In this document: positions 47,801-50,800 of the stretch, in pieces
Numbering within the stretch: the stretch's first letter is position 1
Layout of the letters: each line of letters opens with the position of its first letter
Origin: Escherichia coli O127:H6 str. E2348/69
GTDB lineage: Bacteria > Pseudomonadota > Gammaproteobacteria > Enterobacterales > Enterobacteriaceae
Direction: 5' to 3' (one strand)
DNA length: 64,000 nucleotides
Assembly: GCF_000026545.1 (NCBI RefSeq)
Contig: NC_011601.1
Program-made: the position numbers

Positions 47801-50800
47801 TTATTGTGTCAGTAAACGGCATATTATCAGTGATAGTTCAAACAGTTAGTAGGTAGAAAATGAAGACCAAAAGAAAGAGCTTTGATCAATTCTTATGGCA
47901 TGATATTGATTTTGAAGATGATGCTGCAAAACAGGAAGAATACCTTGAATCTGCATTGCCACTTATTGGCCAGATTGTTATGTATTTCAATGCGCTAGAG
48001 AAAGAATTAGATAAAGTCATTTATGAAGGATTCAGCGATCGGTCAGATCAGTTAGGAATAATAATTGTGCATAACATGAATTATGCAGCAAAAGTCGAGT
48101 TATTTAGACGTCACTCCGAATTATTCCATTTGGGTGTTGGGCAGCATGTTGATATGTTTGAAGGTCTTATAAAGGATCTCAAGGAATGTGGACGGTTACG
48201 AAACATTACTGTACATGCTGACTGGGATAGCACTGATGTCGAAGGATATACATATTTAGGCATCAAAATAACTAACAATGGAATATCTCAGGAATATATC
48301 CAGTTTGACCTGGGGTCGTTGGAAAGTATCCTTCAATTGATTTTCAGTACGAGATATAAGTTGAGTGATTATTCAGACTTAAGGGGAGATATACTGGCTT
48401 CACATTAGTGCCATTTTTTTACTAAATAGCTAACAAATACTATCGGTAAAAGACAACATCGCAATGGTAAAGCTGCCGTGAAGAAGACATTGATTGATTG
48501 GATCATAGAGACTGATAACTGGACAGGAATCGCAGCGTGGGCGGGTTTCGGTTTGTCAGTATTTCAGTTAGTAAAATCAAGAACATCGCTAAGACTTTAC
48601 CTCGGGTGTGATCAGCACGAGGACAGAATATACGTTTCGAACATAAGCGCACATGATGTAACGTTGAGTGTAGCCGGTGTCGTAACAGCCAGTGGACGCC
48701 TTAGAATGCTTTCCGACGAGTATTCGGATGAGAACATGATCACACCGATGTTACCAAGAAGGTTGAAAGCACGAGACGAAATGGTCTTGAACGTGCCCTT
48801 CATAAATAAGGCTCATCACAACAAAGTGCATCATCGTGGCGGGGTGTATATCAAAACATCTGACGGCAAGATGTTCAGTGATGTTTGTTGGATTAGACGC
48901 CAATGGTGGTGGTTACTGTCTGTAATACTGCGAGACACAAAGCGATAGGACAAGCGAGTCGCAGCTCATATGAGTGCCAACTGACATACGGCTCAGTTGG
49001 AATACTAGGATCGCGACTACGTGTTGTCTGCGAAAAACTGGGACTCAATAGATGGGTGTAGATTTAATTGATACGATCCTGTACGCGAATATTTCTCAGC
49101 ATAAATATCATCCCAGCGTCGGATTATGGTATTCAGAATGTGTGTGATGGTCTCTATCTTTATTCAGACCTTTTCTTCTTATCTTCCCATTCTTTTAAAG
49201 TGCTCTGATATCTTTCTTCATTTATTCTTTTTTCCTCGGTTCTGTCGCTTGAGTTGTAATTATCTGTTTTAATTTTCTTGGCTCCTTGGGATATCGGCCT
49301 CCAGTCCTCTCTAATTTTTTTCACTTGCTCGGCTATTTGTGTCATTGGACTCCTTGCTCCTAAATAGCTAACCCCCTCGAAAGAAGCCATATCATAAGAA
49401 TATTCATTGAGTTCTCTTTCTGTAGATCCGGGCTGTTTTGACCAACTGACACTAATAGAATAAATTTGATCCTTAATTTGCTCATACTTGCAGAGATTGC
49501 TGTTGAGAGAGTGTCCGTTTTTTAATACGCTGACCTTGCTAAATGGTACGCCTCTATTTTTTCTATGTTCTGCATTAACGAGAGGGGGATCAAATTCGAC
49601 CGCTATATCATAGGCTGGTGCATTTCCAGTATTAGCGATATTAATGTCAAAATAAAAAGCAGCCCAAGAGTTTGGTTCAAGAGTCACAACAACATGTGGT
49701 TGAACTGATGCGTCAACCATCCTTTTCGTTTCGTTTGCTAATAGCCTTGTTACTCTCCACAAGAAAAACGTAGCAACTGCTGTTAGCAGTGCTGCAAAAG
49801 CAGAGATCATTGTGCTTATAGTATCTATATGCTGTGTGATGAATTCGATCATTCTTCTCCCTCGAAATATAGTGCTTATTGTTATCAAAGGTAAGATAGC
49901 TCCCGGCTTGAAAAATTGCACGCTTATGGTTGCCCCTCCCTCGACGGTTAAGGCTTCAACTTCCCCCGTGCGCCTCTCCCAGCCGAAGGCTGGGCGGGCT
50001 GTATATCGATTTGCCTTCCTCTGTGGCGTTTATGACCCTGTTTCGCGTTCTTACCGTGAGGCTGTGGGTTAGGGTTACTCTTCTCTTTAAACGCTAAATC
50101 ACTCCTGAATCTCCACTGTTAAAGCACTTTGCGTTGATGCTTGGCGCTTCTCTTGGCTGTCGTTATTGTTTTGGCTTTGGTGTCATCAATCGTTCGATTC
50201 TTGCTACCTGTCTGAGTGATTACTATCTGGTATCATCAATTTAGGGTTTGACTAAATGCCACCACCAATGCAATGATGCTACCGTTTTGTGATACCAGAC
50301 GGGTGAGGTGAACCATGAGGACTTTTATCTACTGCCGCGTTTCAACACGCGAGCAGGATACGCAGAATCAGGTGCTGGCTATTGAGCGTGCCGGGTATAA
50401 GGTGCCGGAGAGCAGGGTAATCAGCGAGGACATTTCCGGCAGCGTTCAGGCTATGCAGCGCCCTAAGTTCCGGGCGATGGTTGAGCACAAGCTGGAAGCG
50501 GGAGATCAGCTTGTCGTGCTGAAACTGGACAGGCTGGGGCGTGACAACATCGATGTGCAGCAGACCATCGACATGCTGTTAGAACGCGGCGTGAAGGTGG
50601 TGTCTCTTGACCTGCCAGCGCGTGATCTGACTTCATCTGAGGGCAAGCTAATCCGCCAGATGTTTGGAGCCTTTGCTGAGTTCGAGCGAAACCGTATCCG
50701 TGAGAGGACGCTGGACGGGCTGGAGAAGGCGAAAGCCAATGGCGTTAAGCTGGGACGCAAGGAAGCCACCGACACCACTCAAAAGGTGCAGGAGCTGCGG

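Follow-up and report, generated by a model that had tools for sequence, protein, structure and literature searches.

Surveys of P2-like phages have described the Z/fun slot as a mixed-purpose hotspot that holds defence-like cargo and frequent DNA invertases (10.1101/2024.10.15.618418), and have found that a tail-gene hotspot carries 16% of P2 defence systems and that cargo of P2 turns up again in cryptic tRNA islands (10.64898/2026.02.27.708500). In addition, defence loci have been reported to be marked by small serine recombinases (PMC12632615). Two groups of described membrane proteins are of particular relevance here, namely the prophage superinfection-exclusion proteins (e.g., P22 SieA, T4 Imm, and HK97 gp15) (PMC10883804, PMC11436027) and the transmembrane (TM) effectors of cyclic oligonucleotide-based antiphage signaling (CBASS), retron, and defence-associated reverse transcriptase (DRT) systems (PMC9122126). 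The present analysis concerns a gene on the minus strand of a 64,000-nucleotide stretch of Escherichia coli O127:H6 str. E2348/69 (contig NC_011601.1; hereafter, the window), which lies in an integrated element at the tRNA gene leuX and is referred to below as the target. It is a real, well-conserved single gene with an inner-membrane-anchored product; by sequence it belongs to an already sequenced, uncharacterised family (P2-EC53 ORF1, phrog_11802, DUF8453), and it is an autonomous, horizontally mobile accessory module that has repeatedly landed in accessory-gene hotspots. As to function, about an even chance is given to the proposal that the product, carried by a prophage or satellite, is a putative anti-phage factor that would work alone, at the cytoplasmic face of the inner membrane.

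The open reading frame (ORF) at 49160-49921 on the minus strand begins with a GTG and comprises 253 codons, a version also found in the original E2348/69 annotation (CAS12138.1). An earlier note on this DNA, made from the sequence alone, had instead favoured an internal methionine with a good ribosome-binding site (RBS) and a product of 230 residues, and the start at the ATG at 49850-49852 (Met24) is indeed the one used by RefSeq (WP_000569068.1), the point at which the phrog_11802 profile begins, and the Met at which every homologue starts; a GAGGGAG stands 5-11 nt 5' of it. The region is 100% identical to the E2348/69 chromosome. Pairwise ratios of nonsynonymous to synonymous substitution (dN/dS, or omega) against E. 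coli and P2 homologues are 0.10-0.19, and the target is therefore a real, constrained gene. The constraint is unevenly distributed, with omega at 0.02-0.12 in most comparisons for the protein body and at 0.4-2.3 for the last 26 residues, in which charge is nonetheless retained. In a 24-sequence alignment drawn from alpha-, beta-, and gamma-proteobacteria, the target has all 34 of the 34 invariant columns, and every family-invariant motif is present in it (TA.AT..LWRVT..LA.ET.RM, NTGNA.A, FDPPL, YLG, REDW, and DR). In other E. coli, truncated alleles and alleles with nonsense codons are common, but decay or loss of function of the E2348/69 copy is hardly credible: it is full length, its start, RBS, and TM helix are intact, none of the invariant residues is missing, and its dN/dS is ~0.1.

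The family is a large one. The target matches phrog_11802 over its full length (E 6.2e-127), residues 24-251 of the longer ORF aligning to positions 1-228 of the 230-position profile, and its homologues are labelled 'DUF8453 domain-containing protein' in RefSeq. A word-indexed search returned 243 homologous clusters at 90% identity, and a profile search of 1.84 billion representatives returned 1,551 clusters at 50% identity with E<=1e-3, 510 of them at E<=1e-10. Nearly all clusters are 180-250 aa long and share one common architecture, although some are without the C-terminal tail; one distant subgroup naturally stops near profile position 180. Hosts include Enterobacterales, Pseudomonas, Xanthomonadales, Burkholderiales, Sphingomonadales, Rhizobiales, and Caulobacterales, a range that covers the alpha-, beta-, and gamma-proteobacteria at ~45% identity across those classes. 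The word 'orphan' in the earlier note thus holds in the sense of a stand-alone gene and fails in the sense of an ORFan. Such a gene in such a place would be no surprise to a specialist.

The architecture proposed in the earlier note, an N-terminal TM helix followed by a highly charged C-terminus, is recovered by hydropathy and by modelling. The Kyte-Doolittle maximum (1.92, 19-residue window) falls at residues 12-30 within a hydrophobic stretch of ~12-32, and an AlphaFold2 model built on the 24-sequence alignment (mean predicted local distance difference test score, pLDDT, 83.7) places a single long helix at residues 2-49, which would comprise the TM and juxtamembrane segments. This is followed in the model by a seven-strand beta-sandwich (54-154), a helix (169-188), and a long charged helix (201-229), residues 161-230 holding 17 K/R and 13 D/E and the C-terminus being rich in K/E/R. 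The N-terminal tail of the target has no K/R, whereas the 15 residues past the TM helix have four; across relatives, the mean K/R count is 0.3 on the N-terminal flank and 3.6 on the C-terminal flank, the latter being the higher in 76/76 relatives. By the positive-inside rule, the target is accordingly predicted to be bitopic with its N-terminus out and its C-terminus in, so that the sandwich and the tail are predicted to be cytoplasmic. The best-conserved part of the protein is the TM and juxtamembrane segment (majority-residue frequency 0.67-0.79), and the small-residue-rich character of the TM helix (AALLTAVAT) suggests helix-helix packing as opposed to a passive anchor. Structure searches with the target gave no informative match, and a sequence profile search of the PDB gave only noise (E>=0.5). 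Foldseek against BFVD retrieved the phage proteins A0A8S5PHQ8, A6N1W4 (Microbacterium phage Min1), and L7TMN9 (Rhizobium phage RHEph01) at E 2e-6 to 9e-5 over 168-190 aligned columns; like the target, these are predicted to combine a TM helix with a beta-sandwich, but identity is 11-17% and TM-scores are 0.34-0.47, and as the three proteins are uncharacterised, the likeness carries no functional information.

In other genomes, the gene is found in a variety of positions. About 100 complete E. coli genomes, the P2-like phage R18C, and the P2-EC53 fragment all have it between the genes for tail-fibre assembly and the tail sheath (FI), a slot that in P2 itself holds the unrelated fun(Z). In NCTC11023, the same element backbone as in the window is found at tRNA-Gly with different upstream cargo (a 190-aa gene and DUF3800) and the same target gene, and in PK8261 the same backbone, at leuX, has an IS3 in place of the target gene and has kept 94 nt of its leader. 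In other genera, the gene abuts integrases, stands at an island edge near a resolvase, or follows DUF932 in contexts that resemble integrative and conjugative elements (ICEs); it also stands with a DUF6680 protein on one side and a PDC-S35 TIR protein on the other. Flanking proteins from 36 loci numbered 138; none of their families recurred more than three times, and operon-like neighbours are mutually unrelated, so the search for a functional partner among the neighbours ended in rejection; given that the neighbours differ in every locus, the target is concluded to act alone.

In E. coli, the gene is often damaged. A total of 462 E. coli records match at 60-80% identity, and most are probably like the SHP24 copy (6917-7600 of locus L016), a remnant in a KpLE2-like island near fec from which an insertion sequence (IS) fragment has removed the start and TM helix. 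PGAP calls the rest, from an internal Met, as a 190-aa 'DUF8453 domain-containing protein', convergent with an AbiJ-NTD4 protein; the commonest E. coli representative of the family therefore appears to be a pseudogene fragment. An allele in a P2-like prophage of OkiPb01716 (7976-8668 of locus L002) has in-frame stops after residues 198 and 207, with loss of the charged C-terminal helix.

Taken together, the Z/fun slot, the published hotspot surveys, the HEPN-like neighbour of the window copy at the cargo end of the leuX element, the serine recombinase nearby, and the defence genes beside some distant homologues make an anti-phage role the best single explanation. In this reading, the locus is a self-contained 'moron' consisting of a 140-nt leader and one gene, and the module hops among hotspots such as the Z/fun slot of P2, the cargo next to attL in the leuX element, ICEs, and integrase islands. 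Its product would be a bitopic protein with a short periplasmic N-tail, a conserved TM/juxtamembrane helix, a cytoplasmic Ig-like beta-sandwich, and a charged helical tail, and would by itself protect the carrier cell from other phages. The cytoplasmic sandwich and helix region may sense a conserved infection cue at the inner membrane face, upon which the conserved, small-residue-rich TM/juxtamembrane helices (AALLTAVAT...LWRVT..LA.ET.RM) may associate with one another or with a conserved membrane component of the host, the outcome being either an aborted infection or a blocked genome entry. An abortive or sensor-effector mode is favoured over classical entry exclusion because the family is spread beyond prophages, the protein acts alone, and its bulk is predicted to be cytoplasmic.

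A number of observations nevertheless weigh against an anti-phage role. The protein body is under strong purifying, not diversifying, selection, unlike that of many direct phage sensors. Known defence genes (type I and IIG restriction-modification, TRIP13 with NucC, PDC-S35 TIR, AbiJ-NTD4, and CBASS parts) adjoin the gene at a minority of loci, restriction-modification, CBASS, or TIR neighbours being found at a minority of the 36, and several loci lie amid housekeeping genes (after a parC-like gene; alone between ribBA and rodA). The IS-truncated remnants and the nonsense prophage allele indicate that loss of the gene is tolerated in E. coli. A simple scan of the minus strand upstream of the target found no consensus sigma-70 promoter, no Pfam or NCBIfam family matched (the Pfam copy searched was without the DUF8453 model), none of the 5,027 models of PADLOC v2.0.0 matched at E<=1, and no paper on the protein or its family was found in the literature. 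With no match to any annotated PHROG, Pfam, NCBIfam, or PADLOC family, homology to a characterised superinfection-exclusion family was likewise not detected. The suggestion in the earlier note of an abortive infection (Abi) or superinfection-exclusion factor is thus in keeping with the genomic context and finds no homology to a validated family of either kind; homology to a housekeeping or structural protein, for which searches were also made, was not found.

Some of these same observations (the strong constraint on the protein, the copies amid housekeeping genes, and the frequent decay in E. coli) keep alive a role in lysogenic conversion outside defence, in which the cytoplasmic domain would modulate a conserved host inner-membrane process (e.g., transport, envelope stress, or division) to the benefit of the carrier. 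Strong purifying selection coupled with ~45% identity among three proteobacterial classes would point to a conserved, probably host, partner, and copies amid housekeeping genes are without a mobile-element signature. The sole name other than the RefSeq label given to the protein in any source, that of the P2-EC53 copy, is 'putative lysogenic conversion protein', and non-defence cargo such as the cytolethal distending toxin also occurs in P2 hotspots (PMC9122126). Yet no domain indicates a host pathway, the recurrent positions are defence-rich hotspots, and the gene is patchy and often lost or truncated in E. coli, a decay that has also been counted in favour of this role. On balance, lysogenic conversion is considered a tentative alternative, appreciably less probable than an anti-phage function.

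The leader that precedes the gene travels with it. By BLAST, the unit common to the window and P2-EC53 is 808 bp long and consists of the 140-nt leader and the coding sequence (CDS) to ~25 nt before the stop. The leader is less diverged (K=0.31) than the synonymous sites of the CDS (dS=0.68), and a core of ~40 nt is almost invariant across the leuX element, NCTC11023, and P2-type phages, although CDS synonymous sites are ~50% saturated. The low divergence and the near-invariant core would fit a promoter/operator of the gene's own, such as a moron is expected to have, from which the gene would be expressed; the core itself is probably a promoter/operator for some regulator. A structured RNA or riboswitch in the leader was considered and rejected, the only Rfam match being a chance-level ctRNA (E 0.92) and the folding z-score -1.7; a UUCG hairpin in the leader is absent in NCTC11023. 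Weak sigma-70 promoter candidates are visible by eye upstream of the target.

The features of the target and of its surroundings are collected in Table 1.

Table 1. Coordinates, in the window, of the target gene, its leader, and the features of the surrounding leuX element
Feature	Coordinates	Strand	Basis or remark
CDS, 230-aa membrane-anchored protein, WP_000569068.1, phrog_11802/DUF8453	49160..49852	-	stop codon included
In-frame GTG upstream extension, outside the protein	49853..49921	-	phrog profile and all homologues begin at Met24
Shine-Dalgarno-like GAGGGAG	49857..49863	-	from sequence; -11 to -5 relative to the ATG
TM helix codons (residues 12-32)	49757..49819	-	hydropathy and AlphaFold2 helix
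Seven-strand Ig-like beta-sandwich codons (residues 54-154), invariant NTGNA and FDPPL motifs	49391..49693	-	alignment and AlphaFold2
Charged helical C-terminal region codons (residues 161-230)	49163..49372	-	YLGAR..REDW helix conserved, then fast-evolving K/E/R tail
Leader travelling with the gene, 140 nt, common to P2-EC53; presumed own promoter/operator	49853..49992	-	808-bp BLAST module
Leader core, nearly invariant: AACCATAAGyGTGCAATTTTTCAAGCCnGGnGCTATyTTA	49892..49931	-	alignments; function inferred
tRNA-Leu(CAA) leuX; last 23 bases (47320-47342) = attL	47258..47342	+	
attR, exact 23-bp repeat of the leuX 3' end	62381..62403	+	
Tyrosine integrase of the element, attR end	61028..62239	-	
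Small serine recombinase, Resolvase + HTH_7, DNA-invertase type	50315..50884	+	divergent from target; inner border of cargo region
182-aa HEPN-like protein, neighbouring cargo, independent of target	47860..48408	+	
156-aa ORF, hydrophobic N-terminus, unannotated in RefSeq, gene status uncertain	48478..48948	+	

Upstream of leuX, the gene order is lptG, yjgR, and ahr. The 23-bp repeats, for which the chance expectation is none, delimit an integrated element of 15.06 kb (47343-62403), and the element looks like a phage satellite with att-proximal cargo. Besides the genes in Table 1, it carries a major-head-protein homologue (phrog_267), an HNH endonuclease, an endonuclease-VII-like protein, and a DEAD-box helicase that matches the PADLOC DpdF model PDLC02858 end to end (E 2e-277). 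The AT-rich cargo segment described in the earlier note is evident as a 41%-GC block between attL and the serine recombinase (48-50 kb has 41% GC, most flanking intervals 52-56%) that holds the target and two plus-strand ORFs; in line with the note, which had the target convergent with an upstream cassette, it is convergent with these two ORFs and divergent from the recombinase.

The company kept by the window copy raises the question of whether the gene serves the mobile element itself, be it through interference with a helper phage by a satellite, exclusion of a competing copy, or a part in DNA entry or lysis of the carrier. The satellite-like make-up of the element (major-head-protein homologue, HNH endonuclease, helicase) would suit such a role, as would the copies in ICE-like contexts with DUF932 and TraI_2. 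The gene is found, however, in P2-like phages, satellite-like islands, ICE-like contexts, and loci without mobile-element genes, carriers so diverse that no single life cycle fits all; moreover, the slot in P2 otherwise holds a non-essential gene, and the element backbone exists in PK8261 without the target. A role in the life cycle of the element is consequently judged improbable.

Still more doubtful is the idea of a multi-gene system in which the target would work with the HEPN-like protein and the 156-aa ORF, or with the serine recombinase (e.g., as an invertible or phase-variable cassette). The genes are indeed clustered in a single AT-rich block, several enterobacterial islands have a serine recombinase in the vicinity, and 'inverted repeats' are annotated on the flanks of the gene in the P2-EC53 GenBank entry AJ512682. 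Neighbours change by context, however, with the 190-aa gene and DUF3800 in NCTC11023 and no such partners in P2, and the HEPN-like gene is itself solo elsewhere; a multi-gene arrangement is accordingly viewed as very unlikely. An invertible cassette was rejected, inverted repeats around the target in the window being limited to chance 14-16-mers, and so was a segment of the Din family (Hin/Gin/Cin), for which no AAACC-NN-GGTTT core is found within 47-52 kb and the three window-wide matches are at chance level. The repeats annotated in AJ512682 showed no pairing by BLAST.

With regard to the neighbouring cargo, the product of the HEPN-like gene has an invariant RNxxxH motif, and its AlphaFold2 model, in which the Rx4-6H motif characteristic of HEPN proteins is found in a four-helix bundle, matches HEPN toxins and HepS. 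The target and the 156-aa ORF have no similarity to each other; the only outside match of that ORF, found by tblastn on a conjugative plasmid of Pseudomonas syringae, is weak (28% identity, E 5e-7) and unannotated. Directly past attR, a 435-aa ORF (62628-63935, minus strand) matches positions 606-1028 of the 1032 of phrog_3830 (E 2e-148), and, as it covers just the C-terminal 40% of that family, it suggests that leuX holds another mobile element in tandem, possibly a truncated one. Far from the target, a sharp GC trough at 31000-33000 (0.32-0.43, against ~0.52 around it) may be another horizontally acquired segment.

Should the target prove to be antiviral, a compact, partner-free, single-TM system would be added to the defence catalogue, and a recurrent, unexplained cargo of the P2 Z/fun hotspot (P2-EC53 ORF1, sequenced in 2004) would be accounted for. 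Across Proteobacteria, the same cargo would then be seen to shuttle among a phage, the satellite-like element at leuX, and islands of the chromosome, and E2348/69 would have at least two candidate defence genes (the target and its HEPN-like neighbour) at the att-proximal end of the leuX element. Should it not, the target would be one more conserved DUF moron.

Among the described systems, single-TM or few-TM effectors of abortive infection (e.g., those of CBASS, retron, and DRT systems) likewise combine a membrane helix with a cytoplasmic part, occur in defence hotspots, and are presumed to act by membrane disruption, but they need a partner sensor or enzyme, whereas the target has neither a conserved partner nor a PADLOC match. 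SieA, Imm, and HK97 gp15 are, like the target, small inner-membrane proteins encoded by stand-alone prophage accessory genes; no homology to them was detected, the family of the target is spread far beyond prophages, and the target is predicted to be single-pass (N-out/C-in) with a large cytoplasmic Ig-like domain. The resemblance to exclusion proteins and to Abi TM effectors is, on these grounds, an analogy of architecture without homology. P2 Fun(Z) (NP_046777.1), which is annotated as a block to T5 growth, is prophage-borne and non-essential and is encoded, like the P2-type homologues of the target, in the slot directly upstream of FI, but is 528 aa long as opposed to 230 aa; tblastn of the target against a phage collection that included P2 hit only R18C and P2-EC53, which leaves no similarity to Fun(Z), and the target is best described as a positional analogue of fun(Z). 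True homologues are P2-EC53 Z-region ORF1 (CAD54906.1, AJ512682) and R18C QDP43518.1, with 84-85% amino acid identity over 228/230 residues; these copies occupy the P2-type phage slot before FI, as opposed to a 15-kb leuX element, and differ from the window copy in the last ~25 residues, but have the 140-nt leader in common with it.

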